In this document: positions 1 through 40,878 of the stretch, piece by piece
Numbering within the stretch: the stretch's first letter is position 1
Layout of the letters: each line of letters begins with the position of its first letter
Origin: a virus
Taxonomy: Duplodnaviria > Caudoviricetes
Reading direction: 5' to 3' (one strand)
IMG/VR virus record: IMGVR_UViG_3300012952_003943
Span: 13,003 to 77,002 of that record
DNA: 64,000 nt
The notes under the pieces: model-generated
What the model was told of the DNA's origin: nothing
Database searches by the model: none
Seen by the model: the letters and a program-made list of their open reading frames with translations, nothing else
Program-made: the position numbers and the translations under genes

Positions 1-761
1 AGCCTATAACCATTAGGCTTGCCGCTAATATCAACAGAGCTGCCGGTTACAATAGATACAGCATATGAAGATGACATATGCATAACAGTGCCAGCGTGAA
101 ATAACCCATCCCTGGATATACTAGTATACCTTGGATTGATATAAAACTCAAATGTAAATGCGTCTGCAGGCCGATATACCGTCTCACCAGTCAGCGATGA
201 AGATTGCGCAGGATATATGAGCGATGATGAGGTAGGAACATCATGAGGATATTCGGATCTAAAAAAGTTTAGGGTGTGATAGTTTGAAACAGCCCACTGT
301 AGTGATGGGTATTTTACCCTGTAATAAGGAAACAACACATCTCTTATTACATTCTTTCGCAGGGTATCTGCAGTTAATTTAAGAGAAGGCTCGAACCTTG
401 TGACCTCAACAGCCTTTTGCTTTCTGAATGATACGGAAGATGAATTAACTAGATCTAAATACTTCTCTGCAAAAAACTCAACATTGGATGCTGAAACTGC
501 AAAAATAGATCCAGACTCCACAAACCCTTGTGTAGACTGAACCCACTGGGTCCTATATGCCTCCACAGATCCAGTAGCATTAAACTCCTGCTCATTAAAT
601 GCAGATAGCTTAAACGCTTCTTTCTCTATCGGACTTGATTGAGCAAAAACCTTTACAGAGCCTACGATTGTTCCGTCAGAAGAAGAGCTAAATGTTCTCC
701 GGGGATGGGCCGTAAGTGACTGATTCTCAAAAAAGTCCGGCGTTAATGGTATGAGCGCCAC
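1..761 (-). CDS. Virion structural protein, probable LamG/concanavalin-like domain; 3' end runs off the window start
   Basis: Missing from the ORF track. GTG start at 761 preceded by GGAGG (767-771); the frame is open to the window edge (MALIPLTPDFFENQSLTAHPRRTFSSS...AFTFEFYINPRY...GTVMHMSSSYAVSIVTGSS). FTFEFYINP resembles the LamG FT-x-E-x-W-x-x-P strand. Confidence 0.75.
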   Translation of the reverse strand, partial: MALIPLTPDFFENQSLTAHPRRTFSSSSDGTIVGSVKVFAQSSPIEKEAFKLSAFNEQEFNATGSVEAYRTQWVQSTQGFVESGSIFAVSASNVEFFAEKYLDLVNSSSVSFRKQKAVEVTRFEPSLKLTADTLRKNVIRDVLFPYYRVKYPSLQWAVSNYHTLNFFRSEYPHDVPTSSSLIYPAQSSSLTGETVYRPADAFTFEFYINPRYTSISRDGLFHAGTVMHMSSSYAVSIVTGSSVDISGKPNGYR

Positions 762-778
762 AATTCCCTCCGGAGCAC

Positions 779-2077
779 CTAGAAATCAAGCCTTATCCGA
801 ACCGTCAAATCCTTTTCGTCATTCTTCTCTACTGGCCTAGACATTTTTGCGACAGCCAACAGGTTGTCATTTGCATCATATAATCCTACAGTCGTTGGGA
901 ACGTAAAAGATCTCTGTGTATCTTCAGATCCTTCATCGATTACTACGATCCTGTTTTCTGCGTCAGTATATGTTGGGTTTGATGAATAATTGAACTCATC
1001 GGCCGTTGCCCTACAGAATATCAATGTAGAGTTTATATTGGTAACATTCTGAAAGGTTGTTGCAGTAAGTGATCCCGACTGAAAGCGTGATGATGCCAAG
1101 TGATCAACGATGTTATCGATTGAGGCAGACGTAAAAAAGTCAGGAATAAAGAATGCATTTGCATTCGCCTGATTTGCCGGGCCACCGATAACCGTCTTTC
1201 CGGAAGATGCAGCGCCCTGGCTTGAGTCTGACATTGCATCAATGACACCAGATACTGGCTGCTTGCCGGCCATGACCTTTGATGCGTCAAGAACTGCAAC
1301 GCCCTGATCATAGAATATTACACCTACTGAGTGACTGGTGTCGGATGAATCAACAATGTTTCCTACCTCACCCCCGAATGTACTGCGTTTGTTAACTGCA
1401 GATCCTACATCCGTATAGATCTTCATGCTCCCTGTTGATGTATATAACAGGTTTGGGTTTGTCAGGGCCCTTGGACCTGTGCCGGCATCGGTGTAGTCAT
1501 CTCTATTAGAGTATCCACTCACAGCTGCGCTTGGCCACCCAGTTGCTTGCTCCTGGCTTGCTGACTGGTACATCCTGACTGCAAAGGTCTCTCGCTTAAT
1601 CTTATCTCTAGAGAAAAGTCTCTTAAAGTTAACAAAGATCGCTTCATCAATCCGGTTTGTGTTAGTCGTATCTCCGAATGGCGCAGCAAATGATGATACC
1701 TTGTCACCTAACAGCACCTGGGCGTACTGTTCATATACCTCCACTTTTTCTCTCATCATAATCGACGTAGATGGAAATAATAATTTTCCAGTAGAGTCTT
1801 CGCCTGACTTGCAGTCGGCGACAGTCTGTGACGTAGCAAATAGGCCAACCGTCATATCGAATATCGGATTAGCCGTCTGTAGCGTAAAGTCTTGGTCAAA
1901 TACTGTTTGAAACAAAGAAGACGTCACACCGGGACCAATCCCCCCGGTTACAAATACCTGGTATTTCTTTCTTGTTGTAGATCCAGAAACATCTTCCTGA
2001 ATAATATCCACCAACTGATTTAGAGACGATCTAGTTGTCTTAATGTCAGCAGCTGAGATTTCCTTAAATGTCGCCAT
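779..2077 (-). CDS. Conserved huge-phage virion/baseplate-associated structural protein (432 aa)
   Basis: C-terminus TTVGLYDANDNLLAVAKMSRPVEK...VRIRLDF matches a motif I recall from large-phage structural genes; SD GAGG upstream; lies in the structural operon. Confidence 0.7.
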   Translation of the reverse strand: MATFKEISAADIKTTRSSLNQLVDIIQEDVSGSTTRKKYQVFVTGGIGPGVTSSLFQTVFDQDFTLQTANPIFDMTVGLFATSQTVADCKSGEDSTGKLLFPSTSIMMREKVEVYEQYAQVLLGDKVSSFAAPFGDTTNTNRIDEAIFVNFKRLFSRDKIKRETFAVRMYQSASQEQATGWPSAAVSGYSNRDDYTDAGTGPRALTNPNLLYTSTGSMKIYTDVGSAVNKRSTFGGEVGNIVDSSDTSHSVGVIFYDQGVAVLDASKVMAGKQPVSGVIDAMSDSSQGAASSGKTVIGGPANQANANAFFIPDFFTSASIDNIVDHLASSRFQSGSLTATTFQNVTNINSTLIFCRATADEFNYSSNPTYTDAENRIVVIDEGSEDTQRSFTFPTTVGLYDANDNLLAVAKMSRPVEKNDEKDLTVRIRLDF

Positions 2078-2095
2078 CTTTTTTCCTCTGCCCTA

Positions 2096-2806
2096 TTACT
2101 TTGTTATCGTTACTTCAAATTCTTTTACAGCACCTGACTGGATTCCTGCCATCCTCAGTACTGTAGATATTGTATTTTTATCGCTAGCATTTCCGTATAC
2201 CAGAAACTGTGCATCAGTAATTGATTTTGTCTCAATCTCAACAGTCAGCCTTGACCCGCCGATTGCGGTTGTGTTAGGATCCCTAGTAACGATGTATGTA
2301 GCAATTGAGTCACTATCAACGTTATCAGGTGTTAAGCCCCTTATTTGCAAGAAGCGGTTTGGCACCTCAACAATAAATGCCTGATCTCTAAGCTCAACGT
2401 CAATCGTAGTCTCGTTTTGCACATCTTGAGTTAGTGTAAGAGACCTAGCAGATCCAGCACCGGATCTTGTCATTGATAGGCTAGTTGCAGTAGAGTTTAA
2501 TCCATCACCTGAAAGTGTAAATGTAGGAAGCCTGATCAGGTTTGGGTTTGAAACGCTAATCATTCTATTCTTCAGGCCGAGAGATGCGTTTGTTTGAGCT
2601 TCAAAAACAGGCGTGTTTTTTTCCACTTTCTCTTTTCCAACTGTGCGTCCAAACTTTTGTATGATAGAATAATCGACTTCATCATCTCCAAAAGCAAACT
2701 TAACAATAGAAAATGATCCATCGTTTCTAGCTAAAAATGCTCGCCCTGTGTCTGTGAGGACTGCATCAATTATAATATTGTTTGTTGAGTGATCTAAGAA
2801 TCCCAT
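2096..2806 (-). CDS. Conserved huge-phage structural protein (236 aa)
   Basis: N-terminus MGFLD...IIIDAVLTDTGRAFLARNDGSFSIVKFAFGDDEVDY; SD GGAG; structural operon context. Confidence 0.7.
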   Translation of the reverse strand: MGFLDHSTNNIIIDAVLTDTGRAFLARNDGSFSIVKFAFGDDEVDYSIIQKFGRTVGKEKVEKNTPVFEAQTNASLGLKNRMISVSNPNLIRLPTFTLSGDGLNSTATSLSMTRSGAGSARSLTLTQDVQNETTIDVELRDQAFIVEVPNRFLQIRGLTPDNVDSDSIATYIVTRDPNTTAIGGSRLTVEIETKSITDAQFLVYGNASDKNTISTVLRMAGIQSGAVKEFEVTITK

Positions 2807-2816
2807 GTGTTAAACT

Positions 2817-2830
2817 CCAATGGTAAATAT
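2817..2830 (-). promoter_or_regulatory. Putative late promoter element ATATTTACCATTGG (copy 1)
   Basis: Identical 14-mer in two intergenic gaps (here and 30979-30992), each just upstream of a structural gene start; a late-type sigma factor is encoded in the window. Confidence 0.5.
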
Positions 2831-2834
2831 AATT

Positions 2835-9283: not shown

Positions 9284-9284
9284 G

Positions 9285-11921: not shown

Positions 11922-11925
11922 ATCG

Positions 11926-12873
11926 TTAGTCCAAAATTACCGTAAATAGATTCACAAACGTTGCATTACCAAAGTCGTCCTGGTATACCCTTCCCAGAAA
12001 AAATACCCTAACACCAGCAGAGTATGGATCTTCATCAGGAAACTCCCCAAAGTCTATGATCGCCAACTTTTCAATCCCGTCCGGGCGGACGTCTAACATT
12101 TGACACACTATGTTATTATCTTTTGAGGTTTCTGAAAATCTTATTTCAATTGACTCTTTATTTTCCAACTGCTGCATTAAATCTTGATAAGTTAAGATTT
12201 GTGCTTGATTTAATTTCTTGTACGTACCAAGAGGCTTTCCAGTAGTCCTGCCTGCCTCCCTCCTGTTAACAGGAGGTAAGTACCTATAGTTAGGAAGGTG
12301 TGATAACCTAACATCCTGGAAAAGGCTCTCAACATCATTAATTGATGACTTTGTAATACTGCCGGCCTGAAATGGCACTGAATCTGTGATCCTAAACTTC
12401 ATGTCTTTGGGGTACAAAGAAAATGCATTACTTTCTGAAAATGGATCTGTCGTTCCGATGATATATTGATCCTGAAAGTTTGTCGTTGATGTCTCAAGCA
12501 CCCGTTGCGCAGCACTGCGGATGGAACCTGTCAATACCTGCAGCCTCTTTCCAGACGGAGCAGACTCAGAGGGTGCAGAACCTGACAGTAGTTTTCCTCC
12601 TGATATTTCTACATCACCGCCTCGAAACGGCATAAGCCGGCCGGCATCATCTGTCTCAAAAATAATTTGATCTTGCTGGCGATTGCACGCTTCAAAATAC
12701 AGCCTCGATGACGCATCATCAGCGATACTTCCGGAGTTGCCGGTATAAAACGTTCCCATATCGGTAAAACTAGCAAACTTAATTTGCAGTTCTCCGTCAG
12801 CAACCTGCCGTCGCCCTTCAAGAGTAATGATCGTATCCATTACTCGCTTTTTGTTATTTAGTATGCCTGCCAT
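11926..12873 (-). CDS. Conserved structural protein, paralogous at the N-terminus to 2096-2806 (315 aa)
   Basis: MAGILNNKKRVMDTIITLEGRRQVADGELQIKFASFTD aligns by eye with the D-x-x-[LI]-T-x-x-GR N-terminus of the 236 aa protein. Confidence 0.6.
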   Translation of the reverse strand: MAGILNNKKRVMDTIITLEGRRQVADGELQIKFASFTDMGTFYTGNSGSIADDASSRLYFEACNRQQDQIIFETDDAGRLMPFRGGDVEISGGKLLSGSAPSESAPSGKRLQVLTGSIRSAAQRVLETSTTNFQDQYIIGTTDPFSESNAFSLYPKDMKFRITDSVPFQAGSITKSSINDVESLFQDVRLSHLPNYRYLPPVNRREAGRTTGKPLGTYKKLNQAQILTYQDLMQQLENKESIEIRFSETSKDNNIVCQMLDVRPDGIEKLAIIDFGEFPDEDPYSAGVRVFFLGRVYQDDFGNATFVNLFTVILD

Positions 12874-16503: not shown

Positions 16504-16516
16504 TTAGTCCCCCGCA

Positions 16517-19500
16517 CTATATAGTAATCGTAAAGTCAGCATTGACGTCAGGGTTGTCTTCCCTGTCCCTTACGTCTCCATCAAAATATGGTACTGATGA
16601 CGTTGCGTGTGAGCTTAGGTTTTGAGATCTTGTGTTGATGGGTGAAGTAGTATCACCTGTCTCTGAATCTATGAATAGCACTGAAACTGCTGGTACAGTT
16701 ACAAATGATCTGTCATTTTCTGACTCACCACCCTCATTAAAGAACCGCGTGTTCTTTCTTTGCTCTAGCATATCCCTAAACTGCCCGTACGTTTCTCTTC
16801 TGTACACCGCAGACGCATTCACTGGAAGCGCGCTTTTTAGGCCATATTTCCAACCCCTGATCTTTGGTGTTGATCTTCTAGTGCCAATATTTGTGGGGAC
16901 TAAATCAACAGAGCCACTCATACCATTCCCAGAGCCAAACCAGAATTTAAGGATAGCGTCTCTTGCAGCAGGAAGCTCAGTCTCACCAGCAGGGCTAGAA
17001 ATAATAATATCGTTTCCGCCACCGGGAAGTGCCAAAAAAACGCTTTTAGGAATTGCTTTTCCTATAACACTATTAGATGAATTGACAATATTGATTTCAT
17101 CATCAAACCCATCTAAAAGAGATAACCGGTCGACATCAGCATATACACCCTCAAACGGAAATGCACCCATCCAACGAGCGTTAATCGCGTCAGATCCAAA
17201 AGTAATAGAGAAGCTATTGTCTGCTAACCCATATGGTGCAACAGGAATTGCATCGTCTGCGCCGCCTGATCCTGCTCCCCCGTTTAAAGATTCTGCCAAG
17301 CCCGGGTTTGTTATGGCATGGTATATAGAAGGATCACCAACCAGGCTATCATAGTACCGTTCACCAGAGTCAGGGTGCCTGACAAATCTCCTAAATGTTC
17401 CGGAGTCTTGTAGGGTCATTGATCGATTGAGATTCTGCCAGGGTGTCCCAATTGCTGCAGCATTGGGTGTACCGTTTGCTGTCGCAGAAATTCCCCTTGC
17501 TTTGGGCGTAGGCCATGGGGCTGGTGTCGAAGCACCACCAATTGATTCTTCATCCAGCATACTGCCGGTAACATGCTCCTCGAACATGCTGCCAGCAAAG
17601 CTCTCAATATATTCAACATCAAACTGATCAACAACAGGGTTGTCTCCAATTACTTGATGAATTTGGTTTGACACCAGTGATTGTTCTGACGATGGTAGGA
17701 GTTCCTTGTCCTGCTTGATAAACGAGCCAAACAGAATCAGTTTTCCCGCACCAGGCTCAAGGGTCATATTTGGCCCTGAGCCTCGTCGTCCATGGAAATT
17801 GTACCCATATGGATCCTTTGTTGATGGACCACAGTCGGTCACTCGGCCTAGCTTTCCTGGCATGGTTGTCTGCCACCCAAAAACCAGTTGATCTTCTGGC
17901 ATTATGATATAAGGGCTTGTATCATCAAATTCAAATGTATTGACATTTCGTGGCCTTACCGACATCCGAAGGTAGTTTTGTTCGCTGGTGTAATCAAGAT
18001 CTGGAGCGACCCCCCGGGGTTGCATACCGTCTACACCTTTCACTAATGCGCGTGGGTCAGTTGAACGTATACCCCTTCCGGATCTTCCGCCTCTCCAAGA
18101 TGTGCGGAAGTTAAACTCATCATTCCCATCATGACCGGTCTGGAATGAAAATGATCCTGACATTGTTACCGGACGCTTTGAGACTCCTCTCATGATGTAA
18201 CTTCCAGTGGGTGAAGGCTGAACCTTATGGGTACCACCCCTACTGATGTTCAACGTTCCACCATTTTGTACTTCAAACTCAGCCAGGCCATCACCTGAGT
18301 CGATCCTGATTCGATCACCTGGCTTATAGCCATACCCACGTACGGCCCCATCTACAAGAATTGTGGTGACCGCACCGCCGGCTCCGATGGCTGTCACATA
18401 TACCTTTGCACCTACCCCGGTGCTGCTACCTTGAGCAGTCGTACCCAGCAGGGCTGCGGGATCGGCTGTATATCCAGAACCCCCAGCGGTCTTGATTAGA
18501 TCGCCTGGATAGCCGGTGAGAGGGCCGTATAGAGTGGGTGGTTCAAAATCAGCTGTCGGCTGAAATGATGTTGCATTAAAGTCACCGAAATTTTGTGTGG
18601 CAGCCTCAAAAGGAGTAAAATAACCATAATCTAGCGTGTTGACTTCTCTTGCTAGCCCTTCGTCGAGCACTCCACTCATATCATTAATCATAATAGCATA
18701 AGGTATGCCTGAAGGGCTCTGTGATCCTGAGGGTGCTGGTGCATAGGTTGTCCACTGCCCGTAGGTCACCAGATCACGTGTCGTATCAACAACAGCTGTA
18801 GTTGCATTGCTGCCACTAGTAAGCTGAGTTTTTCTTGGTACAGACCCAGTGATCTCAAATATGCCTAGAGCACCATTATCATCAACATTTGCTGAGAGTG
18901 AGTTATATGAATAAGGGAACGATGCCTTTGATTGCCTAAGCATAAAAAATGAATTGATCGCTGCCCTGTGACACTGGTCAACATATGTCGGCATCCACAT
19001 CGGGTCGCCTCCTGACAATCCAGATCTCCCCATACAATCTGTCCACCCCGAATTTTCTCCGTTGTCGATCTGTGCGTTTGACTGGCTCGTTATCTGGTTC
19101 CAGCCGTTTGAATCAGCCAGGCTCGGTACTGAGCCTGATCTGTATGAATCGTAAAATGATAGATTTGTCAAAAAATCATATGATGAACCCGGGCTCCATG
19201 ATCCAGAATATGCATATACATATTTTTCTAGAACAAACGGAGCCGTGATGTACCTAGACATATCAAGGGCTTGAGAGCCCGTAGCATGGAACTTGGGGTG
19301 AAATGGAAATCCGAATTCTGAGATGGGCCGGCATTGTGAGTTTGTTCCTGATGCAATAAGCTCAACCCCTCTAGAAAAGCCTATACATGCAGTGTCTAGA
19401 AATGACTTGACCTGCCCCTCTGAGTATACACGTTGGGTTTGGCCAGGACCAATAGTCTCCCACATCCTTCTGTCAAAATTGTAATACACCATCAAGTTAT

Positions 19501-22333
19501 TAGGACCACCATTTCGGCGGCCTCCGGTGGTCCCAGGTTCATCTACTAAATAACCGAAATGTGTACGATCGGCCGGCTCAAGGTCAATCACGATCATCGC
19601 CTTATCCCTAAGGGGCGATGAGAAAAACTCTTTTATCTCTCCTGAAATTCCCTCTTCATAAAATTCAAGTTCCGGAAGTGCAACTAGAGAATCATCATAT
19701 GCAGTAAACAGTCGGACTCTCTCATCTGATGATATGTCAAGGGTGGGGTTCCCGTCAGAGACACCCCTGCGAATCGGTGCCTGCGCCACAATAGGTTTAG
19801 GCCCGAGAACACTGGGCGTAGCTATGTTCGTCAAGCCTAATGGGGGCCCTGACAATAGTATCGATGATGTTGTGTGAAGGCGTGTTCCTTGGGCTATCCG
19901 CGTAAGATATTTTGTATCATATGGAAGTACAACGGGATAAATTGCCGACTGGGGTTGTCCTCCCTCAAAAGACTCAGCAACTACAACATTCTTAAAGTCC
20001 CTAGCACCCACCTCAATAGGTGTATTACCACCTCGGCCGGGACACATTTGGTTTAATCTAACAACATTATTTTCGACAATAGCGCGGATTCTTAATGTCG
20101 GGGTATGCTGATTTACTGTCTCCGCAAATTTTGCTGCGGCTTGCATACCTAGAACCTTGCGTAGGATCTGCCTGTTTGACTTCGGTGTGGTTGATTTATC
20201 AATTTTAGCCCTGTACTGCTCCTGCTGTTGCCATCTCGTTCTCTGCTCTTTTGAAAGATTCGTTAGATCGACGACTGTTGAGTCTGCCTCGGATATTATG
20301 CCTCTTTGAAACTCGAACTTTCTAGATCCTGCTGTGCGATACATGCGCAGATCCTTGAGGCCCCAGTTATCTCCAGTGGTGGAGGTCGCGTATAGCTGAG
20401 CAATGCGTACGTAATAAGGAGATCCGGGATAAGAAATATTAACTTTGATGCGGTGCAGTCCTGATGTTGCTCCGCCTGGAATCGAGGTAGTGTTCCTGTT
20501 ATCAGCTAAAGTACCTCCCCCCTGACTTTCAGCAACAGGAATGAGCTCCAATGTCTGTACAGGTTCATTTCCTACAGCAATCCCATGGACCGTATACCAC
20601 GTAGTGCCGTTTGTTGAATATTGTACAACAAGACCCTCGAACCCGGCGGCAAGGACACCCGAGGAATCCGGAGGTTCCATGCGAAGCCGCCCCCACGCGT
20701 CGTAGGCGGGGTACGTCAAGTAGTCCCACCCTCCCCGAGCAACTAAAAAGCTCAGTAGGGTATCACCATTTGTACCTTCGCTAGGAGAAATTAGCTGATT
20801 TGAAAATAATGATCTGCTTCCACCAACTGTGGCACCGGTTGCCGGATCAACAGAGGTTGCCACCTGAGGGCCGGCAAACACAAGAAGCTGACCTATGAGA
20901 ATTGACTCCCCGGCGATGGGGGCCAATTGACTTCTTAGCACAGGCGTTGGTGAGGCGCCGGCGGGGGCAACGTCGGGGAATGTTCTCCAGTCTGGAAATG
21001 CGGCGCGGAAAGCTGAGGAACCATTTGTGTCTCCTCCTCCCGTACCGTCAGGTAATGAAGTGGTTGCCTTAGCGCCGGCCCCATGGCCCGTTTTTCCTGT
21101 CAAGAATTCCGTAAGTGGAGGCCCAGGCCAAGAACCATGTAAAGTAATAGTTCTAGCGTCTAGAGGCATGCCAGTAAATTCAATCTCTGCAGTTGCATAT
21201 GGCGACATAAAATCGATTGTAGACGAGTCGACATAGGGCTCAAGTATCGCATCATTGCTCATATGCCTGAACTGGGGTTCGCGAGGCATGCCCCCTAGCG
21301 TCTTTGTCCTCGGATATGTGTTTGCAATTTGATCTTCTTCAAGCAGCCTCACACGAGCCGGATTGCTTAGGTATCCTGAGCCAGGCTCCATCATCGATAA
21401 TTTTGTTGCGTTGTAGACCGCTGCGACTTCACCGGCCGACAATGCTCTGTCCCACAAAGCAAGCTCTGCAACGTCTCCAGATGCGTGCCAACCCTGGTGG
21501 ACGGTTCCGTGACCAACCGATAAGGGTTCATCATGCTTTGGCAACATTCCGTTGTAGGTTCCAGCGCCGGTGTGCGTTGTCTGGTTGATAGCTCGTTCAC
21601 CATTAATATAGATCGTCAGCAAGTCTTGCTTGTCATTTCCGGTGATGTTCGGATCTGCATTATATGTGCAGACTATGTGTGTCCAACTGCCTACGGCTAG
21701 CGCTGGTGGTCCTACTGTGCTGGTCCGGGCGTAGATGCGCTTGTTGGTCGCGACACCAGATGAATCGAGCAGGTGGAATGCGACTAAGCCACCCTGGGCC
21801 CGGATCATATATGCTTCCCTACTAGAGACAGATCCATCACCACCCTTTTTGCCTACAATTTGCCTGTATGAAGAAATGCCTGACGGAAGAAATGATGGGC
21901 GGAACCACAAAGATATCGAGAACGGCTTATCGCTTGAATTGCTAGAAGTTGTCGCCCCGTTTGCTAGCGTCGTAAAATCAAATGTCCCTGCTGGGTTTGT
22001 AGGCAAGTATTCAACATAGCGAACGCCGCTGGTTAAATCGCCGTTGTTATTAATATTAAATGTTGGGTATGTTCGCTCGCCTATTGCTATTGCTTCCGGA
22101 AGGTAATTAGTGACCGGGGCTGTCGCCATATGATCATCTTTGTATGTTGCAGTTACTGATCCGCCCACCCTGGGGTTTAAGCACTCAGGTGATGGGTTAA
22201 CTGCACCCTCAAGATAATACGCGTTGAGCCGTGACCAGTATAGCAGGTTATCCTGTGCTGCGTATATATTGTTCTGGGCATCTCTAAACCTAACATTCAA
22301 GTCGTAGTTCTTATTTGCAATACTTTTCGGCAT
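16517..22333 (-). CDS. Giant virion structural protein with N-terminal LamG domain and inserted modules (1938 aa)
   Basis: LamG motifs FSISLWFRPS, WTHIVCTYN, LTIYINGE, GDVAELALWDRALSAGEVAAVYN (about 21410-21930); TAATG coupling. Confidence 0.75.
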   Translation of the reverse strand: MPKSIANKNYDLNVRFRDAQNNIYAAQDNLLYWSRLNAYYLEGAVNPSPECLNPRVGGSVTATYKDDHMATAPVTNYLPEAIAIGERTYPTFNINNNGDLTSGVRYVEYLPTNPAGTFDFTTLANGATTSSNSSDKPFSISLWFRPSFLPSGISSYRQIVGKKGGDGSVSSREAYMIRAQGGLVAFHLLDSSGVATNKRIYARTSTVGPPALAVGSWTHIVCTYNADPNITGNDKQDLLTIYINGERAINQTTHTGAGTYNGMLPKHDEPLSVGHGTVHQGWHASGDVAELALWDRALSAGEVAAVYNATKLSMMEPGSGYLSNPARVRLLEEDQIANTYPRTKTLGGMPREPQFRHMSNDAILEPYVDSSTIDFMSPYATAEIEFTGMPLDARTITLHGSWPGPPLTEFLTGKTGHGAGAKATTSLPDGTGGGDTNGSSAFRAAFPDWRTFPDVAPAGASPTPVLRSQLAPIAGESILIGQLLVFAGPQVATSVDPATGATVGGSRSLFSNQLISPSEGTNGDTLLSFLVARGGWDYLTYPAYDAWGRLRMEPPDSSGVLAAGFEGLVVQYSTNGTTWYTVHGIAVGNEPVQTLELIPVAESQGGGTLADNRNTTSIPGGATSGLHRIKVNISYPGSPYYVRIAQLYATSTTGDNWGLKDLRMYRTAGSRKFEFQRGIISEADSTVVDLTNLSKEQRTRWQQQEQYRAKIDKSTTPKSNRQILRKVLGMQAAAKFAETVNQHTPTLRIRAIVENNVVRLNQMCPGRGGNTPIEVGARDFKNVVVAESFEGGQPQSAIYPVVLPYDTKYLTRIAQGTRLHTTSSILLSGPPLGLTNIATPSVLGPKPIVAQAPIRRGVSDGNPTLDISSDERVRLFTAYDDSLVALPELEFYEEGISGEIKEFFSSPLRDKAMIVIDLEPADRTHFGYLVDEPGTTGGRRNGGPNNLMVYYNFDRRMWETIGPGQTQRVYSEGQVKSFLDTACIGFSRGVELIASGTNSQCRPISEFGFPFHPKFHATGSQALDMSRYITAPFVLEKYVYAYSGSWSPGSSYDFLTNLSFYDSYRSGSVPSLADSNGWNQITSQSNAQIDNGENSGWTDCMGRSGLSGGDPMWMPTYVDQCHRAAINSFFMLRQSKASFPYSYNSLSANVDDNGALGIFEITGSVPRKTQLTSGSNATTAVVDTTRDLVTYGQWTTYAPAPSGSQSPSGIPYAIMINDMSGVLDEGLAREVNTLDYGYFTPFEAATQNFGDFNATSFQPTADFEPPTLYGPLTGYPGDLIKTAGGSGYTADPAALLGTTAQGSSTGVGAKVYVTAIGAGGAVTTILVDGAVRGYGYKPGDRIRIDSGDGLAEFEVQNGGTLNISRGGTHKVQPSPTGSYIMRGVSKRPVTMSGSFSFQTGHDGNDEFNFRTSWRGGRSGRGIRSTDPRALVKGVDGMQPRGVAPDLDYTSEQNYLRMSVRPRNVNTFEFDDTSPYIIMPEDQLVFGWQTTMPGKLGRVTDCGPSTKDPYGYNFHGRRGSGPNMTLEPGAGKLILFGSFIKQDKELLPSSEQSLVSNQIHQVIGDNPVVDQFDVEYIESFAGSMFEEHVTGSMLDEESIGGASTPAPWPTPKARGISATANGTPNAAAIGTPWQNLNRSMTLQDSGTFRRFVRHPDSGERYYDSLVGDPSIYHAITNPGLAESLNGGAGSGGADDAIPVAPYGLADNSFSITFGSDAINARWMGAFPFEGVYADVDRLSLLDGFDDEINIVNSSNSVIGKAIPKSVFLALPGGGNDIIISSPAGETELPAARDAILKFWFGSGNGMSGSVDLVPTNIGTRRSTPKIRGWKYGLKSALPVNASAVYRRETYGQFRDMLEQRKNTRFFNEGGESENDRSFVTVPAVSVLFIDSETGDTTSPINTRSQNLSSHATSSVPYFDGDVRDREDNPDVNADFTITI

Positions 22334-23307
22334 TATTTTTTCAAGCCCCCATATGCTATAGAGTCAGTGCCCTGCAGGGATCCGATGTATTGAAACCCAG
22401 CAGTCGAAGACTTATAGTCCCTATCATTCATGCCGTCTATTGATCCAGACATGTGGCCAAAAGCTAATTCAAAAAGGTTTTTTTCATGGGATACGGAGTT
22501 TCGAACATCTGCGAGATCTTCATACGCCTCGACATAATCAGATGAATCTACCCATGGGAGCAACGTTTCATGATCATCATGCAAGTGCCCCTCGATATAT
22601 ACGGAACCTGACATAGTCTGTCCCATAAACTCATATCCACCATCCTCATATGGCTCAAATGAAGTGTGCCTTAAGTTGATCTGTTGTACTATTGGGCAAG
22701 ACCACCCACGGGAATCTTCGGCACCTCCCATAAAAAACCCACTCACCCTGTGTGCTTCAAAAGGCCAGTCAATTGAGTTTCTACTAGCCCTAGATCTTAT
22801 TGTTAACGGCTCTATTACCCCGTCCATCTGATCCGGATCTTTCATTGAGACGTTAAATAGGATGTAAGGGTAAATCATACTACACCCGCCATCCTCTAAA
22901 AAAGCAACAGGGTTAAACCCAGGCATATCCTCAAACGGCTCATCATCTTTAAATAGTTTTGGTTGCCCGTAATCTCTTCTGTCAACTTCATGATTCGGGG
23001 CAAAGGTAATCATCCCCTCCGTCGGGGTGATAGGAGCGTCGACTGTAGAGACAGATCCGGAAGTTGCGGTCGTCGCCGGTGCAAACTGGATTGAGTCATC
23101 GTATATCTTGCCTGCACGATTCCATGGCCGACCACCAACAAGCATAATAGGGGAAGAACCGGCTGCTAGCTTTGGTGACATACCAGCAAAACGTTGCTCC
23201 ATGGAAAGAACACTAACACCCTGCCGAAACGGCATAACAGATCCGGATAATGTTGCCGTTGATCCCCTTGTCAATGATCCGCTAAGTACTCTTTGTGTTG
23301 TTGGCAT
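22333..23307 (-). CDS. Hypothetical virion protein (324 aa)
   Basis: Translationally coupled at both ends (TAATG); contains DGVIEPLTIR; five [ST]GS motifs. Confidence 0.6.
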   Translation of the reverse strand: MPTTQRVLSGSLTRGSTATLSGSVMPFRQGVSVLSMEQRFAGMSPKLAAGSSPIMLVGGRPWNRAGKIYDDSIQFAPATTATSGSVSTVDAPITPTEGMITFAPNHEVDRRDYGQPKLFKDDEPFEDMPGFNPVAFLEDGGCSMIYPYILFNVSMKDPDQMDGVIEPLTIRSRASRNSIDWPFEAHRVSGFFMGGAEDSRGWSCPIVQQINLRHTSFEPYEDGGYEFMGQTMSGSVYIEGHLHDDHETLLPWVDSSDYVEAYEDLADVRNSVSHEKNLFELAFGHMSGSIDGMNDRDYKSSTAGFQYIGSLQGTDSIAYGGLKK

Positions 23308-26300
23308 TAGAACCTCTTCATCGTACCGACTAGCTGTCGAAGTAGTATCGTACCCTTAAGACCATGACGATTGTTTTCGCCTATGTACATATCAGAATAT
23401 CCGTAGTTGAATTTTGCACGCTCTAACATATGGGACTCGACAATAAAGTTAACGCCTAAGAATTTTGTCCTTCTGGGCACTAATCGATCAATTAGAATCC
23501 CCAAAGATGAATCAAACCACTTGAAAAACTCAAAGAATGACCTAAGGTTAATTTTTTCATCTAAGCGGTTAAAGTAAACCTCTCTTAGAACCGCTAGCTC
23601 TGGATACTCAGTAGAGAATAACAGTTCAGGATTGCCTAGTGCGTTATCCAGCGCGTCGAATGTAGAGAATATGTTGACAATATCTTCATTAAGCGCCTGG
23701 ACTGAAGATACTTCAATTGCGAACCTAGTATCGTCTACAGGCTGTTCGCTTCGCCTAATCTCATAGACCGGTGCAACCTCGCCTCCATATTTTGACACGT
23801 TGTCCCAGTTTTGCCAAGAGCGCACCCGGACTTTATTGTCTTGTGAGAATTCATCAAACTTAGGATCGAGCATACTATAGTCAAACCTTTCCGGCTTGAT
23901 AATCCTTTTTGATATCTCAAACGAGCTTCCGCTTATGTGCATGTTATTTTGTGAATAGTCGAACACATCAATTTTTCCCTGCTCATTTGAACTAGTGGTA
24001 TATTGATCTACTGATGCGTCGATCCGAACTTTCTGGAATGAACCGCTTCTAGTCTTTACAAAGTTAAAGTTTTTGGAAGGATCCTGCACGCCTAATGACT
24101 TAAAGTTTCTTGCATGCTCCCTTGTCTCTTCTTGTGCTAGCGCTTTAGACCAAAACCTGATCCTGCCTACACGCCCAGTAAACATAGTGTACCTACACAG
24201 GTCAGGACGATCAGAAGCATATGAATTTAGGAAGTGTGTTGAATAGTCTGAACCATTCATTCGGATGCTCTGTGATCCGATCAGGAAAAACGATCCAGAA
24301 ACGTTATACCATGGTTGTCCCGGCCTGCTGTCATAATCTTGCCATATTCCACCTGGCCGACGAACATTTAGGTGTGAGCTACCCCATGGCTCTGTACCAA
24401 AAAGAGGGTCTTCCTCAAACAAAACGCTGGAAGACTTGTATTCAGCCAAGTCTCCAAATGACTGGCGGCCGGCCCTTAAGAAGTATGACGATGAGACGAT
24501 TGAATTAAACTGATCATTTCTTTCTCGGCCAAACGTAATATGCCACTTATTTCCGTCAAATATATTAACACCAGGCAAGTTAAATTCTAACGTAGGACTA
24601 TGCTGGCTCGTTCCAGCCCTAACATATGCTTTTAGAGAAGCAGTTGTCGAGTGTGATGACGATTGAAACGCTAGTACATTTACTAGTAACCCTGGTGCAG
24701 GCCCAAAATCACCTACAGTTGAGGATCCTGTAGTATACATTCTCATCAAGCTCTGTGTTAAGGGGTGTGATACCTTACTTCTCCACACACCACCGAACCC
24801 CGTCCGGACGTCTATAGGTTCGTATTTGTATATTGCCTCATATGTCCAAGAGCCTGATGTCAAGAGACCGTCTTTGTCCCTAGTCGTTCCTATGACTGTA
24901 CCTTCTGGGTTTCTTACAAATGCACTTCCATGTGATATTGTTGGATATCCAGGCTCAACACGTGTGCCTGACAGGAAAGGAGAAACTAAGTGGGGCTTTC
25001 GATCACTAAGGCCTTGGGGAGATATTGTTTCAATTTCCGTATATTGCTTAAGGCTACCTGACATGTCTAACAGGGAAGACACAGTCGTAGATTTTTTACG
25101 AACTTCAGTCAAGTCTCTTTTTGGTGCACCGCCGAACTCTCTAAACCTGAATATTTTATCAGGACTGATTCCTGACGATCTCATAAGTGCCTTGATGCTG
25201 TGAATGGTTCCCTTTGACTGAATTATTTCATTTAAGTTAACAAGAATTCTCCGCCAAATTTGATTTTGTACAGTCTGCAATCCATTTGAAGACAAGCCTG
25301 GCTCTGCGCCCAGGTTTTCTCCATCAACTAGCTGAGAGAGTGAAGAGTTTGAAAACATGTTTGGGAGAGTAAATCCGTAATACTCTCCTAAAAAGGGAAG
25401 AAATTGATCTGCAACGGTGCCATCATCATCATAATCAACATGAAGCAAGTTTGAAAAATGATCTAAAAAGATCTTCATTTCATCAAAATACTGCGCCCAT
25501 GTAAAAAGAAGTGCAGCGACAATTTGAGGTGATCCCATCTTTCCGCCGCCTGGAATTCCGCTATTTTCATCATATGAATATGGATCTGCAATGTCTCCAT
25601 CTTCATTTTCAAATCCCTCAAATGAAGCTTGCTCTAGAAGGTAGTGCTTGGGAACTAGCTTTGTTATTAGGTTCGGGTTATTCGCGTCATAAAAACTAGC
25701 GGAAAGCAAAAGAGACGTGTTTAGTTGTATTACGTCAGGCGAGTCAGGAAATAGCACTGGGTTGCTATATACTCTTTCCAAAATCATAGGAGATTGTATC
25801 GATGAAGATGAAAAGCCTGTTGTTAGCCTACATGCCTCAGTATAGTTTTTGATCCTAGAGTGAAGGGATTTGCCAGAGCTGTCTAAGACAACGTTGTTAT
25901 TGGTATAACTGCCAGAAGCCTCGTTAAACTTAAAGTACAATACCAGCTTATCATCTTCGGTAGGAAAAATATTTTTGTACCTGTATGTTCGCTGTTGCGC
26001 TATATCTCTCGTTGAATGAAACATTCTGAGCTCGTCAATAGAGCCAGAGAAAGTCTGCCGTGGCACATATGCATTATCTGTTGAGCCGGTAATGTGAAGA
26101 CTTCCAGATCCGATTGTCAGTGGTGATAAAGCAAAACCCCAGTCACCGAAGCTTGAGCGATCAGAGATAGACTTAAGCCTCTCATTAACGTAAATTTCTA
26201 AACGACTTTTTCCAGGTGATCTATTATATGTTGCACAAACATGGTGCCATCGATCTTTTTGAAGATCTGCGCTGCATGAAAGAACTGCTGAGCCAGACGT

Positions 26301-26993
26301 TGCAATAAAGAATAGGGGTGATGATCCCTCGTGCGACTTTGATCCTGATAGGCCTAATGTAAAGCCATGGGTTGATCCGCTTATTTTTTGTAAGATTACC
26401 TGGTTAGTGGAATCAATGCTTTGCGAAGGTATGAACAGCTCCATTTCACATGCAAAGGATCCTTTCTTTGGATCTATTACAGAGCGTCCGGTTTGATCTC
26501 TTGATAGGTCAGGAAACAGGCTTCCGGCAAAATCTGCAACTCTAATGCTTGTTCCCAAGTCGGCGTCGTGTCCGTTTGCAGGATTTTCATCAACAGAAGT
26601 ACCAGAAAAGACAAGGTAACCTAAGTGCTTTGGGAATTGATCATACACATGTTTTTCAAAACCAGTTAGGCTATCAAGAAATTGCTGCAACTCAAAAGAT
26701 GAGCCGTCAAAAGGAAAGTGGTTAATAATTCTCTCAAATGCAACATTGACATTTGCTTCTGCAGAGTTAAAGAATGTGTGGTTAGAAAAGTCAGACCAGT
26801 CTAAAGGTATTTGTTGCGTGGACTTAAGCCCTGTTCCAGGCGCGTCATAATTAAACGATGAGGTTGAAATATTTGTGCCTGATAGCATACTAGCATTTTT
26901 GTTAGACACAAATCCTGCATCGTTACGCACGTGCCTAACAACGTCTGCCGCGAAGATTCCTGTCTTGTTAAATGCTACTTTTCCTTTCGACAT
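23307..26993 (-). CDS. Virion/baseplate structural protein with two LamG-like domains (1228 aa)
   Basis: WHHVCATYN..LEIYVNE..FSGSIDELRMF and FDGNKWHITFGR..FTGRVGRIRFWSKAL; the segment FLPFLGEYYGF..IWRRIL..SKGTIHSIKALMRSSG resembles T4 gp7 / P2 gpI-type wedge motifs. Confidence 0.7.
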   Translation of the reverse strand: MSKGKVAFNKTGIFAADVVRHVRNDAGFVSNKNASMLSGTNISTSSFNYDAPGTGLKSTQQIPLDWSDFSNHTFFNSAEANVNVAFERIINHFPFDGSSFELQQFLDSLTGFEKHVYDQFPKHLGYLVFSGTSVDENPANGHDADLGTSIRVADFAGSLFPDLSRDQTGRSVIDPKKGSFACEMELFIPSQSIDSTNQVILQKISGSTHGFTLGLSGSKSHEGSSPLFFIATSGSAVLSCSADLQKDRWHHVCATYNRSPGKSRLEIYVNERLKSISDRSSFGDWGFALSPLTIGSGSLHITGSTDNAYVPRQTFSGSIDELRMFHSTRDIAQQRTYRYKNIFPTEDDKLVLYFKFNEASGSYTNNNVVLDSSGKSLHSRIKNYTEACRLTTGFSSSSIQSPMILERVYSNPVLFPDSPDVIQLNTSLLLSASFYDANNPNLITKLVPKHYLLEQASFEGFENEDGDIADPYSYDENSGIPGGGKMGSPQIVAALLFTWAQYFDEMKIFLDHFSNLLHVDYDDDGTVADQFLPFLGEYYGFTLPNMFSNSSLSQLVDGENLGAEPGLSSNGLQTVQNQIWRRILVNLNEIIQSKGTIHSIKALMRSSGISPDKIFRFREFGGAPKRDLTEVRKKSTTVSSLLDMSGSLKQYTEIETISPQGLSDRKPHLVSPFLSGTRVEPGYPTISHGSAFVRNPEGTVIGTTRDKDGLLTSGSWTYEAIYKYEPIDVRTGFGGVWRSKVSHPLTQSLMRMYTTGSSTVGDFGPAPGLLVNVLAFQSSSHSTTASLKAYVRAGTSQHSPTLEFNLPGVNIFDGNKWHITFGRERNDQFNSIVSSSYFLRAGRQSFGDLAEYKSSSVLFEEDPLFGTEPWGSSHLNVRRPGGIWQDYDSRPGQPWYNVSGSFFLIGSQSIRMNGSDYSTHFLNSYASDRPDLCRYTMFTGRVGRIRFWSKALAQEETREHARNFKSLGVQDPSKNFNFVKTRSGSFQKVRIDASVDQYTTSSNEQGKIDVFDYSQNNMHISGSSFEISKRIIKPERFDYSMLDPKFDEFSQDNKVRVRSWQNWDNVSKYGGEVAPVYEIRRSEQPVDDTRFAIEVSSVQALNEDIVNIFSTFDALDNALGNPELLFSTEYPELAVLREVYFNRLDEKINLRSFFEFFKWFDSSLGILIDRLVPRRTKFLGVNFIVESHMLERAKFNYGYSDMYIGENNRHGLKGTILLRQLVGTMKRF

Positions 26994-28597
26994 TATGGAT
27001 CAACCCTAAATCTTACGTTCTTAGCCTGTTCAATATACTCTATTCCCTTATCGTCAACCAGCAACTCAACGGTATAGTTTTTTCCTATAGGAAGATCTTC
27101 CATGAACATTTCAAAGTACATTCCGTCCGAATCTGTTGACACTCGAGTTCCATTGTTGTCTTTTTGGAAAGGTATCACAATCTTTCCACCATCAAGCTGC
27201 TTAATCCTGTAATACACTTCTTCTAAGACGACACTCTTAAGTGAATACGGAAGTTTTGCCGCTTGCCTCTCTGCAGTCAGATCGTTAACGAATATTCTAA
27301 ACTTTACCCTATCTGCTCTCTTATATGCTGTTCGTGAATTTGTAACAGTGAACATTAACCTTTGTTGTGTTACGTTAAACGCACTCCTAGATATCGTTTT
27401 GACCTCCAGGCTGCCAGTGTGAAATGTTACGGTACCGTCCAAAGACTGCCAGTAGGTATCAAACGTTATAGAACCGCTCTTTATTGCAAACGTGTTAATA
27501 GAGTTTGTGACATATGGATCACTATATACTAGACCACCAGAACTAAAGGGAATGCAGAATGACGCAGAGTAAAGACCTTGAATGCCGTCCCCAACACCAG
27601 TGGTGATGCCCCCGACTCCTGACGTATTTGTACTAGCGGTATGTTGATTAACGATCGATGACGTTACAAACGAGCCGCTCCTGACTTCAAGTCTCATACA
27701 ATCTAGGCCTGTCAGCCTATCAAGAGAGCTACCGGAAAGTATGTCTGCCTGTTGCCCTCGATGATAATTTTGCAAGAATAATGAACCAGTAAGATCAAAA
27801 TAAAAGTTTTGATGATGATCTAAAATAGAATCATCAAATGAAACCTCTATTCTCGGCCTTAAAAACGGGTTTGAATTATGTCTTGTACCAAACCTCTTTA
27901 CAAAATATGACTTATGATCATATTCCTCAGAGCTTGTTAATGATAGTCGGAAGCCATGATTTGACAAATCACCAGACATTGTCGCAGAGACAATATTTGT
28001 AATATCCATCATCAAGTCTTCGCCACCGTTTAGGAAATTTTGTTGTTTAAACAGCGTTTGTTCGCCTGTGTCTAAATCAAGCGTACCTCTCTCTAATATG
28101 TCGATGCCGGTATCACCCATAGAACCTGAGGCATTTGCACCGCTGTGAAACCACAAACTGGGTGAACCTGAAGAATATGATGCTGTTACAAAATTACAAG
28201 AATCTAAATCACTGAATGATACGACATCCCTGCCCAGGCCTTCATCAAATGATCTAGACATAGGGAACAGGACTAGGTTAAAGTTTGTAGGCGTTGCTTG
28301 TCCACCCATAACATCATACATTCTTAAGTAGCATCTAAAAGAAGGGTCAGAAATGTCTAATATAGAACTAGTCAGCTCTCTCAACCTATCATACTCAAAC
28401 TTTACAAAGCCTCGAGACAGCTCTTGAACAGAGCTAGATATTCTTGTTGATCCGCTTATAAACGTCGACTCTTGCCACAGCTTAAAAATATCAACCGTTG
28501 CTGCCTTACCAGTGTTTGCATCAGTTGCCTTAAAGTCATTATTAATGATCTTGTTTGTAATGTATGCGTCGCTAGATGCAGTCAATATTAAAAACAT
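26993..28597 (-). CDS. Conserved virion structural protein (534 aa)
   Basis: Directly downstream of the gp6-like wedge gene; SD AAGGAG; eight [ST]GS motifs. Confidence 0.65.
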   Translation of the reverse strand: MFLILTASSDAYITNKIINNDFKATDANTGKAATVDIFKLWQESTFISGSTRISSSVQELSRGFVKFEYDRLRELTSSILDISDPSFRCYLRMYDVMGGQATPTNFNLVLFPMSRSFDEGLGRDVVSFSDLDSCNFVTASYSSGSPSLWFHSGANASGSMGDTGIDILERGTLDLDTGEQTLFKQQNFLNGGEDLMMDITNIVSATMSGDLSNHGFRLSLTSSEEYDHKSYFVKRFGTRHNSNPFLRPRIEVSFDDSILDHHQNFYFDLTGSLFLQNYHRGQQADILSGSSLDRLTGLDCMRLEVRSGSFVTSSIVNQHTASTNTSGVGGITTGVGDGIQGLYSASFCIPFSSGGLVYSDPYVTNSINTFAIKSGSITFDTYWQSLDGTVTFHTGSLEVKTISRSAFNVTQQRLMFTVTNSRTAYKRADRVKFRIFVNDLTAERQAAKLPYSLKSVVLEEVYYRIKQLDGGKIVIPFQKDNNGTRVSTDSDGMYFEMFMEDLPIGKNYTVELLVDDKGIEYIEQAKNVRFRVDP

Positions 28598-40866: not shown

Positions 40867-40878
40867 ATCATCTCCTAT

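Follow-up and report, generated by a model that had tools for sequence, protein, structure and literature searches.

A recurrent [S/T]-G-S tripeptide in outer virion proteins of aquatic T4-like phages is a candidate O-glycosylation tag linked to a conserved glycosyltransferase pair

Outer tail and baseplate proteins encoded in the window (the whole 64,000-nucleotide stretch of DNA, from an uncultured aquatic phage) contain the tripeptide [S/T]-G-S about five times more often than expected. Together with its hydrophobic neighbours, this tripeptide may well be a recognition tag, most likely the cytoplasmic O-glycosylation acceptor of a conserved pair of GT4-type glycosyltransferases, GTa and GTb (Table 1). 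The motif was noticed in a first-pass annotation, and all of its manual counts were reproduced exactly. Seven enriched proteins carried 45 [ST]GS motifs for 8.2 expected from composition shuffles (5.5x), which bore out the enrichment in the shuffle test suggested by that annotation. The excess persisted against dipeptide-preserving shuffles (21.6±3.5 motifs, with a maximum of 31 in 500 shuffles). An unbiased scan of 12 structural ORFs placed SGS first among all 8,000 tripeptides (35 observed vs 9.19 expected, Poisson p 6.8e-11), the runner-up reaching p 2e-4. Since 49 motifs lay in 41 distinct 9-mers with mixed Ser and Gly codons, the excess resides at the protein level and does not reflect a DNA repeat. 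Near-variants ([ST]GT, [ST]GN, [ST]GD, NGS, DGS and GGS) stayed at background (0.6-1.0x), and a generic propensity of Gly for beta-turns was rejected because these other turn-compatible tripeptides lack the 5.5x excess. The hydrophobic flanks described earlier were seen again, with no preference for Asp. The related S-[AS]-S variants proposed alongside them found weak support for [ST]SS (2.0x, p 0.002), while [ST]AS was not significantly enriched (1.5x).

With S contents of 9-15% and G contents of 4-11%, the enriched proteins are fairly rich in both residues, and the motif could thus be a by-product of S/T/G-rich tail proteins or of picking one motif among many. We give this explanation practically no weight: it is refuted by the shuffles described above and by replication of the excess in ~100 independent loci and three GenBank phages, and the protein richest in S, T and G is not enriched. 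The earlier statement that simple composition does not explain the motif thus stands.

Table 1. Features of the window discussed in the text, with observed and expected [ST]GS counts (expectation, mean of 2000 shuffles per protein).
Feature	Positions	Strand	Length (aa)	[ST]GS observed vs expected	Remarks
Partial ORF	3..761	-	253 of 837	3 vs 0.36	N-terminal residues
432 aa protein	779..2077	-	432	3 vs 0.69	
315 aa protein	11926..12873	-	315	3 vs 0.29	
S/T/G-rich fibre-like protein	12892..16503	-	1203	2 vs 3.96	Not enriched
Virion protein	16517..22333	-	1938	10 vs 3.17	
324 aa protein	22333..23307	-	324	5 vs 0.59	
Baseplate protein	23307..26993	-	1228	13 vs 2.14	Laminin_G_3/ConA-like domain (residues 188-329)
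Outer baseplate protein	26993..28597	-	534	8 vs 0.97	Directly downstream of the gp6-like gene
gp6-like baseplate wedge protein	28611..30455	-	614	0	immuto homolog annotated as baseplate wedge protein
109 aa protein	34321..34650	-	109		Lies between GTa and the sigma gene; a single strong hydrophobic segment at the N-terminal end; kept even in GT-less relatives
GTa, GT4-type glycosyltransferase	34656..35819	-	387		Pfam Glycos_transf_1, 33.5 bits; EX7E intact (GEGYGLPLLEA)
GTb, GT4-type glycosyltransferase	35827..37086	-	419		Pfam Glycos_transf_1, 46.9 bits; EX7E intact (AEGFGLSTLEA)
PD-(D/E)XK nuclease	38067..38915	-			Pfam PDDEXK_1; bounds the conserved GT slot on its upstream side in every lineage
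Sugar-nucleotide/GT cassette	38884..62895	-			Lineage-specific; spot check of 10 proteins

The proteins named as unenriched controls in the first-pass annotation remained so. Besides the fibre-like protein, these were the gp6-like protein, whose family averages 0.20 motifs per sequence vs 0.55 expected (56 homologs), the 878 aa and 1581 aa proteins with one motif each (the latter listed before as 1552 aa), and the glycan-cluster genes with three, plus one in the nuclease.

Within the enriched proteins, which are mainly baseplate and fibre proteins, the sites are internal and largely inherited. Five of the eight motifs of the 534 aa protein occupy family-conserved positions (270, 288, 307, 374 and 394), and in the 1228 aa family (35 homologs) 8 motif columns are conserved and 11 are intermediate. 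Across relatives too, the excess sits at conserved or intermediate alignment columns, and instances in rare columns fit the composition expectation. All ten motifs of the 1938 aa protein lie between residues 1018 and 1806 (2.0 expected there), with none in its first 1000 residues (1.3 expected). The partial ORF has its start codon at 761 and runs beyond the low edge of the window; on the full contig the whole gene (contig positions 11250-13763) encodes 8 motifs vs 1.16 expected.

About 100 related loci show the same excess, among them those of Flavobacterium phage immuto (vB_FspM_immuto; 61 motifs vs 14 expected) and Microcystis phage Mel-JY01 (45 vs 6.9). These two phages and the complete relative G010 (181.6 kb) represent distant lineages that carry the GT pair. 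In G010, 78 of 98 motifs fall within eight tail, baseplate and head proteins, and the remaining 175 ORFs have 20 motifs for 22.6 expected; the G010 major head protein has only 3 vs 0.67 expected. Where particular lineages have lost the motif, it has gone from non-homologous proteins in concert. By its sequence pattern, [ST]GS looks like a short tag recognised by a factor acting in trans, because it is specific to one tripeptide, occurs in only a few outer virion proteins, keeps to conserved columns and is lost jointly from proteins that are not homologous.

Structure prediction had been proposed to see whether the motifs sit in exposed loops. The AF2 model of the 534 aa protein (pLDDT 83) predicts a chain of beta-sandwich modules in which the motifs at 48 and 307 lie at 2-residue hairpin loops, and others lie at strand starts (270, 374), at a strand end (288) or mid-strand (394). 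The model of the 324 aa protein had a pLDDT of only 39. Such placements are compatible with a structural or assembly role, in which h-[ST]-G-S-h would be a tight turn, beta-bulge or strand cap for folding or packing and its co-variation with the GT genes (see below) would be indirect, through lineage history or a host shift. The two G-S hairpin loops are plausible turns, the Gly of conserved columns hardly varies, hydrophobic residues alternate in the flanks, and in a GT-less clade about half of the sites that once carried the motif still have G or N. We nevertheless regard this role as rather unlikely, given that turn-compatible tripeptides are not enriched, that the middle residue at conserved sites of the 324 aa family switches between G, A and S among homologs, and that the local contexts of the sites are heterogeneous. 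Moreover, other beta-rich, S/T/G-rich tail proteins of the same virion lack the motif, homologous proteins in two clades do without it, and its loss is concerted, as noted above.

Both GTa and GTb pass the Pfam Glycos_transf_1 gathering cut-off (26.4 bits) and are assigned to the GT4 retaining GT-B enzymes. Their EX7E motif reads EGYGLPLLE in GTa, conserved across 57 homologs, and EGFGLSTLE in GTb, conserved across 49; GTa has 57 columns conserved at ≥93%, and GTb shows a median of 63% identity in relatives. From these residues, both enzymes are apparently catalytic. GTa is conserved across the phage group, with homologs in immuto, Mel-JY01 and G010, and the nuclease occupies the same syntenic position in immuto, Mel-JY01 and the GT-less clades. 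The neighbouring cassette (about 28 kb, 32 genes) includes, among the 10 proteins checked, GDP-mannose dehydratase, epimerases, UDP-GlcNAc 2-epimerase, GT6, GT11 and GT2. It is mostly without matches in 80 related loci and absent from most motif-bearing relatives. The first-pass annotation had proposed that the motifs are acceptor sites for the adjacent GT cluster; this proposal found partial support, in that the motif tracks the conserved GT4 pair (34656-37086) and not the lineage-specific cassette.

This tracking was evident across relatives. GTa and GTb were both present in 43 of the 43 marine loci in which the nuclease-to-sigma slot was covered (motif ratios of 3.2-6.7), which answers the co-occurrence test proposed in the first-pass annotation. 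Conversely, the slot was without GT genes in all six covered loci of the L071 clade (GC 0.24-0.29), which had 3 motifs vs 13.6 expected, contradicting equal enrichment in GT-less relatives. Its sister lineage of the same composition, L090, kept GTa (E 1e-44) and 16 motifs vs 4.0 (~4-fold). In the L071 clade, retention was 8-25% for motif Gly columns vs 53-59% for Gly conserved elsewhere, and no other motif took their place, which indicates that the fold does not need the motif. Within the nuclease-to-baseplate syntenic block, the GT pair was the sole gene set that differed between motif-bearing and motif-less sister lineages. We counted at least four independent GT-loss events (L071 clade, L315, L317 and LR756508), all on motif-less or motif-weak branches, which account for 17% of the length of the assessable tree (rough P 0.0009, most GT-absence calls coming from fragments 6-25% complete); in the L071 clade and LR756508, motif and GT loss could have occurred in either order. 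Both marine-clade motif losses fall inside one AT-rich super-clade, and a shared host or ecological shift could therefore drive both traits.

No assessable phage had the motif without the GTs. The reverse was found in L304, whose GTa and GTb are intact in the canonical slot and whose 74 kb contig encodes no enriched protein. The link is thus one-way: in assessable phages the motif occurs only with the GTs, and the GTs can occur without the motif, so another role must exist, or be possible, for them. L304 fits the structural explanation, and it also fits one in which the tag is read by some other trans-acting factor (a modifying enzyme, an assembly chaperone or a docking partner such as a decoration or fibre protein) and the GT pair serves elsewhere, for example on a non-protein cytoplasmic acceptor or host glycan precursors. 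Concerted gain and loss in non-homologous proteins imply a common reader and do not specify its identity, and LR756508 keeps GTb beside a thymidylate-synthase-family gene. Such a division of labour seems improbable to us, as the GT pair alone separates the sister lineages and all four GT losses lie on branches with little or no motif.

Two destinations for the sugar under that explanation found no support. T4-type glycosylation of DNA bases is not supported by immuto DNA, in which LC-UV-MS/MS detected dA, dC, dT and fdPreQ1 only and no glycosylated nucleoside (PMC10516641; one phage, at bulk level). PF00303, the thymidylate-synthase family, occurs in G010, immuto and LR756508 and is absent from Mel-JY01, although PF00303 does not distinguish ThyA from a hydroxymethylase. 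As for a surface polysaccharide (Wzx/Wzy or ABC type), a crude hydropathy scan found no multi-pass flippase, polymerase, permease or polyprenyl-phosphate transferase in the cluster. The same scan detected no multi-pass membrane protein in the window, with TM-like segments in 3 of 53 proteins and at most one each; the acceptor should therefore be cytoplasmic.

The GT pair is our favoured candidate for the partner of the motif, whose evolutionary link to the pair makes [ST]GS a good candidate sugar-attachment site. Across a large group of T4-like phages of aquatic origin, the tag would mark beta-sandwich modules in outer baseplate and fibre proteins, GTa and GTb would glycosylate these proteins in the cytoplasm on the Ser/Thr of [ST]GS, and in the source phage the adjacent cassette could supply sugars and extend the glycan. 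More broadly, and more tentatively, these widespread phages, whose hosts are as different as Flavobacterium and Microcystis, may possess an ancestral, sequon-directed and fully cytoplasmic O-glycosylation that coats the outer baseplate and fibres, with cassettes diversifying the glycan and GTs being shed after loss of the acceptor sites. The literature searched contained no report of a glycan on virion proteins of these phages. To our knowledge, virion glycosylation by phage enzymes is established so far only in mycobacteriophages, and we know of no defined acceptor motif for any phage. If true, glycosylated phage proteins would become predictable from sequence, the large sugar-gene cassettes adjoining tail genes in many aquatic phages would be explained, and a sugar coat on the host-recognition apparatus would bear on adsorption, host range and resistance to proteases or defences. 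Cultured immuto and Mel-JY01, in which the motif excess and the GT pair occur together, make a direct test feasible. Loss of the GT genes only where the motif is gone is also a useful pattern for linking orphan modifying enzymes to substrates.

Short O-glycosylation acceptor motifs have precedents, two of which had been suggested as analogies: Ser-Gly xylosylation, with acidic flanks and a Golgi GT14 enzyme, and the Bacteroidota sequon D-[S/T]-[A/I/L/V/M/T], which belongs to a periplasmic system and requires Asp. Neither analogy held, as the flanks of [ST]GS are hydrophobic rather than acidic, Asp is not preferred and the process would be cytoplasmic. The adjacent cytoplasmic GT-B pair GtfA/GtfB, which O-GlcNAcylates streptococcal serine-rich-repeat adhesins, offers a parallel in gene arrangement and in its Ser-rich acceptors with small residues between serines. 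In that system GtfB is non-catalytic and both proteins bear a DUF1975-type insertion. A transferase of this type was rejected, since GTa and GTb both keep EX7E and dozens of conserved residues, leaving no non-catalytic partner; Pfam gave only Glycos_transf_1, Glyco_trans_1_4, Glyco_trans_1_2 and GT4-conflict for them, with no DUF1975-type insertion. GtfA/GtfB acceptors are also disordered repeats, whereas the candidate acceptors here are predicted to be folded beta-sandwich proteins. The cytoplasmic autotransporter heptosyltransferases (TibC/TibA, Aah/AIDA-I) modify many Ser on a regular 19-residue beta-helix repeat. They would share with the source phage a cytoplasmic enzyme acting before export or assembly and, as its target, a beta-rich surface protein in which many Ser recur at set positions, and differ in enzyme family, sugar and regular repeat, the phage enzymes being of GT4 type and their candidate substrates having no regular repeat.

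Among viruses, chlorovirus PBCV-1 encodes cytoplasmic GTs that glycosylate its major capsid protein at atypical sequons. It would share a virus-encoded, membrane-independent glycan pathway with its own sugar-nucleotide genes, and among solved proteins its B736L is one of the closest to GTb in sequence, a weak similarity (E 1.5e-4) that covers the generic GT4 C-terminal domain alone. PBCV-1 differs in being a eukaryotic virus with N-linked glycans on the major capsid protein. The nearest parallel in phages is virion glycosylation by phage GTs in mycobacteriophages (Freeman et al., 2023, Cell Host Microbe, as cited in PMC12619734). According to the account in PMC12619734, phage-encoded cytoplasmic GTs are proposed there to put O-linked sugars on virion structural proteins, and the glycans have been chemically shown on capsid and tail-tube subunits, at their C-termini. 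The source phage likewise encodes GTs, but its motifs are internal rather than C-terminal, and the position-conserved candidate tripeptides of its group, mainly on baseplate and fibre proteins, would imply a defined short acceptor motif.

The excess of the tripeptide [ST]GS in a subset of the structural proteins is real, specific and widespread. All motif counts given in the first-pass annotation were reproduced exactly, and an unbiased scan of 8000 tripeptides over 12 structural ORFs ranked SGS first, with 35 occurrences versus 9.19 expected from composition (p = 6.8e-11; here and below, expected counts come from composition unless another null is named). The second-ranked tripeptide reached p = 2e-4. 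Seven outer tail and baseplate proteins (534, 1228, 324, 1938, 432 and 315 aa, and the partial ORF 3-761) together contained 45 motifs versus 8.2 expected. This enrichment withstood dipeptide-preserving shuffling, a null that absorbs part of the motif signal (mean 21.6 ± 3.5, maximum 31). The near-variants [ST]GT, [ST]GA, [ST]GN, [ST]GD, NGS, DGS and GGS occurred at 0.6 to 1.0 times expectation. Of the S-[AS]-S variants noted earlier, [ST]SS was elevated 2.0-fold, while the 1.5-fold ratio of [ST]AS was not significant. The earlier view that composition alone is insufficient also held, as the 1203 aa protein, the richest in S, T and G, has 2 motifs versus 3.96 expected. The gp6-like protein of the window has none, the remaining 46 window proteins have 10 versus 14.4 expected, and all 10 motifs of the 1938 aa protein lie in its C-terminal half. 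Because the 49 motifs are written by 41 distinct 9-mers, the signal resides at the protein level and a DNA-level repeat was ruled out as its source. Paralogy or internal repeats were also rejected, since an all-versus-all BLASTP of the enriched proteins returned only one weak 68-residue match. Pfam and PHROGs gave almost no matches to these proteins.

In a large group of phages, the motif is inherited and tied to particular positions. Aquatic metagenomes yielded more than 1381 homologs of the 534 aa protein, and a set of 120 of these averaged 6.25 motifs versus 0.90 expected. At positions 270, 288, 307, 374 and 394, the motif was found in 68 to 106 of these 120 sequences, with a nearly invariant Gly. 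In homolog sets from related loci, the excess fell entirely at conserved or clade-conserved columns, and motifs in rare columns matched composition (0.94 versus 0.85 in the 534 aa family, 2.03 versus 2.04 in the 1228 aa family). Motif columns held S (57%) or T (28%) at the first position, G (84%), A (6%) or S (5%) at the second, and S (75%) or T (13%) at the third; the next residue was mostly hydrophobic, in agreement with the flank described previously. In the 324 aa family, G, A and S interchange as the middle residue at conserved sites. Among approximately 115 loci covering 1500 or more residues downstream of gp6, nearly all had a motif ratio of 2.6 to 9.3. Two cultured phages, the gp6 of which is only about 30% identical to that of the window, also carried the excess: Flavobacterium phage immuto (61 motifs versus 14 expected) and Microcystis phage Mel-JY01 (45 versus 6.9), in which SGS was again the top tripeptide (p = 2e-15). 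In G010, the single complete relative assembled from IMG/VR (181.6 kb), 78 of 98 motifs were concentrated in 8 proteins encoded in the tail, baseplate and head regions, and the other 175 ORFs had 20 versus 22.6 expected. The major head protein is among these eight, with a modest excess (3 versus 0.67). The densest case seen was a 1521 aa protein of the same genome (79363-83928, or L228:3363-7928, minus strand), with 35 motifs versus 6.1 expected and no PHROG match.

An AF2 model of the 534 aa protein was confident (pLDDT 83, pTM 0.83) and consisted of a string of beta-sandwich modules. The 18-20 residue motif spacing had raised the possibility of a beta-helix with a 19-residue period, which this chain of beta-sandwiches rules out. 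Fold matches were generic (CBM, FN3, macroglobulin-like) and full-length matches were to uncharacterized myovirus proteins only, so that no fold-based name could be given. The structural contexts of the motifs were mixed: those at 48 and 307 lie in two-residue G-S hairpin loops, those at 270 and 374 at strand starts, that at 288 at a strand end and that at 394 in the middle of a strand. The model of the 324 aa protein was unusable (pLDDT 39).

All long ORFs in the window are on the minus strand. The motif had been proposed as the acceptor for the adjacent glycosyltransferase (GT) cluster, a proposal that is partly supported: two of its genes, GTa (387 aa) and GTb (419 aa), track the motif, and the large sugar cassette, most genes of which are without counterpart in 80 related loci, does not. 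The GT4 pair was present in 43 of 43 marine-clade loci for which the slot between nuclease and sigma gene was covered. In immuto, Mel-JY01 and G010 as well, the pair comes after the same nuclease; there it is remote from the baseplate genes, and other sugar genes come next.

Features of the window (bases 13003-77002 of one 77 kb viral contig)
Feature	Position	Strand	Remarks
Tail, baseplate and fibre module	1-30951	minus	includes gp25-like and gp6-like wedge genes
gp25-like gene	within 1-30951	minus	Pfam GPW_gp25
gp6-like wedge gene	28611-30455	minus	homolog annotated as wedge in phage immuto
Sigma-like gene	beyond baseplate module, before 109 aa gene	minus	
109 aa protein	34321-34650	minus	one strong N-terminal hydrophobic segment; between GTa and sigma gene
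GTa, GT4 glycosyltransferase	34656-35819	minus	
GTb, GT4 glycosyltransferase	35827-37086	minus	
UDP-glucose/GDP-mannose dehydrogenase, 288 aa	37194-38060	minus	Pfam N-terminal and central domains only; truncated-looking
PD-(D/E)XK nuclease	between dehydrogenase-like gene and sugar cassette	minus	
Sugar cassette, ~24 kb	past nuclease	minus	10 genes spot-checked: GDP-mannose 4,6-dehydratase, several epimerases, UDP-GlcNAc 2-epimerase, GT6, GT11 and GT2 enzymes

A conventional exported polysaccharide is an unlikely destination for the GT products, since a crude hydropathy scan found no multi-pass membrane protein encoded in the window. The truncated-looking dehydrogenase is inserted between the nuclease and GTb. 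Of 80 relatives, only about 20 have it; the nuclease and GTb are adjacent in most of the rest. The 109 aa gene is kept even in clades that lost the GTs and therefore probably belongs with the sigma/late-gene module, not with the GTs. The 14-mer ATATTTACCATTGG has only two exact copies in the window (2817-2830 and 30979-30992, minus strand), each within the small interval upstream of a gp25-like gene; the two genes are paralogs (2096-2806 and 30460-30951; 39% identity over 44 residues). The pattern suggests duplication of a gene start together with the signal in front of it, not a general late promoter. With its only exact copies before these paralogs, the 14-mer is uninformative on timing, and a common late promoter joining the GT pair to the baseplate genes was rejected.

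Related lineages that lost the motif, the GTs or both provide natural experiments. The L071 clade (16 loci, GC 0.24-0.29) is nested within the marine clade on the gp6 tree. Its versions of the same baseplate proteins had 3 motifs versus 13.6 expected, and no GT was found in the slot in any of the six loci where it was covered. In these loci, the nuclease is either immediately next to the sigma region or separated from it by genes of collagen-like, PA14 and LamG type; L071:1600-5000 encodes a collagen-repeat protein, two proteins with LamG, one of them also with PA14, and a 161 aa ORF. This motif loss cannot be put down to base composition, because the sister lineage L090, with the same composition (N 12%, G 3.7%), had 16 motifs versus 4.0 expected; a GTa homolog (E = 1e-44 in L241) is also retained there, immediately upstream of sigma. 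Mel-JY01-like contigs of 26-27% GC had motif ratios of 4.1 to 4.7, so AT-bias was discarded as the driver, both groups retaining a 4-5x excess. In the L071 clade, Gly was retained at 8-25% of motif columns versus 53-59% of other conserved Gly columns, and a substitute motif (NTN, [ST]N[ST]) was unsupported at 1.0 to 1.5x. The fold thus does not require the motif. A purely structural role, for example as turns, is in our view unlikely: the motif loss was concerted and tolerated by the fold, and the tripeptide specificity fits such a role poorly, although some sites may double as structural turns. As a separate observation, the gp6-like wedge (28611-30455 and 56 homologs) if anything has fewer motifs than expected (0.20 versus 0.55 per sequence), and the L071-clade baseplate homologs have it at 0.3x expectation, which hints that it is avoided where a tag is not wanted.

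The L109 lineage, the other branch of the AT-rich super-clade, is motif-less throughout. One member, L304, carries GTb (E = 1e-143) and GTa (E = 5e-63) in the canonical slot, with EX7E intact and family-conserved residues kept on par with immuto and G010 (GTa 47/57, GTb 84/93). The L304 GTa is therefore not a decayed pseudo-enzyme, and the motif has not moved to other proteins, none being enriched on the 74 kb contig. Having the GT pair therefore does not imply having the motif. Among its relatives, L317 lost GTa and L315 both GTs; in this lineage the motif vanished first and GT genes were shed later in some sub-lineages, the order expected if the enzymes lose value once acceptor sites are gone. 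The uncultured phage LR756508 (484 kb) has GTb, no GTa genome-wide, and a weak motif excess (7 versus 2.9). Its nuclease has a thymidylate-synthase-family gene directly upstream and is followed by a 152 aa ORF and then GTb (L220:5210-9317); in that lineage, GTb may serve another purpose, or a further one. The suggested co-occurrence of motif and GT pair thus held in one direction, as no assessable genome had the motif without GTs, and failed in the other with L304. On the gp6 tree, at least four independent GT-loss events (L071 clade, L315, L317, LR756508) all fell on branches where the motif is absent or weak. Such branches amount to 17% of assessable tree length (rough P = 0.0009, were losses evenly spread), and no GT loss occurred among 41 distinct motif-bearing tips, with several GT-absence calls resting on genome fragments.

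These results are most simply explained if [S/T]-G-S followed by a hydrophobic residue serves as a tag recognised in trans. As the reader of this tag, the GT4 pair is the strongest candidate, and the motif is on this view a candidate O-glycosylation sequon. We hold this reading tentatively, at slightly less than even chances; L304, which retains GTs without the motif, the fragment-based absence calls and the sites that may also be structural turns count against it. That a factor other than the GT pair reads the tag appears rather improbable. DNA glycosylation as the role of the pair is disfavoured, because LC-UV-MS/MS of immuto DNA, from one phage, found canonical dA, dC and dT, with fdPreQ1 replacing dG, and no glycosylated base (PMC10516641). 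Elsewhere in the group, such a role is less clearly disfavoured: three of four complete genomes have a thymidylate-synthase-family gene, which in LR756508 adjoins the nuclease-GTb block.

In the literature searched, nothing relevant was found on a phage S-G-S sequon or on glycosylated tail proteins. For an aquatic jumbo-phage lineage, which may not be the one studied here, a recent paper lists four orthogroups of glycosyltransferases, their target unknown, as core (PMC12619734). The sequon hypothesis is directly testable in immuto and Mel-JY01, two cultured phages with both motif and GT pair. In Mel-JY01 (L085:6001-7492), annotation divides the GTb homolog between neighbouring ORFs of 573 and 909 nt. 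The division could be genuine, or due to a frameshift or sequencing error, and would matter if this phage serves for the test. GTa and GTb each have an intact EX7E signature and carry many residues that at least 93% of homologs share. From these sequence features, they look like two active enzymes, unlike the GtfA/GtfB pair, in which a catalytic enzyme is joined by a chaperone.
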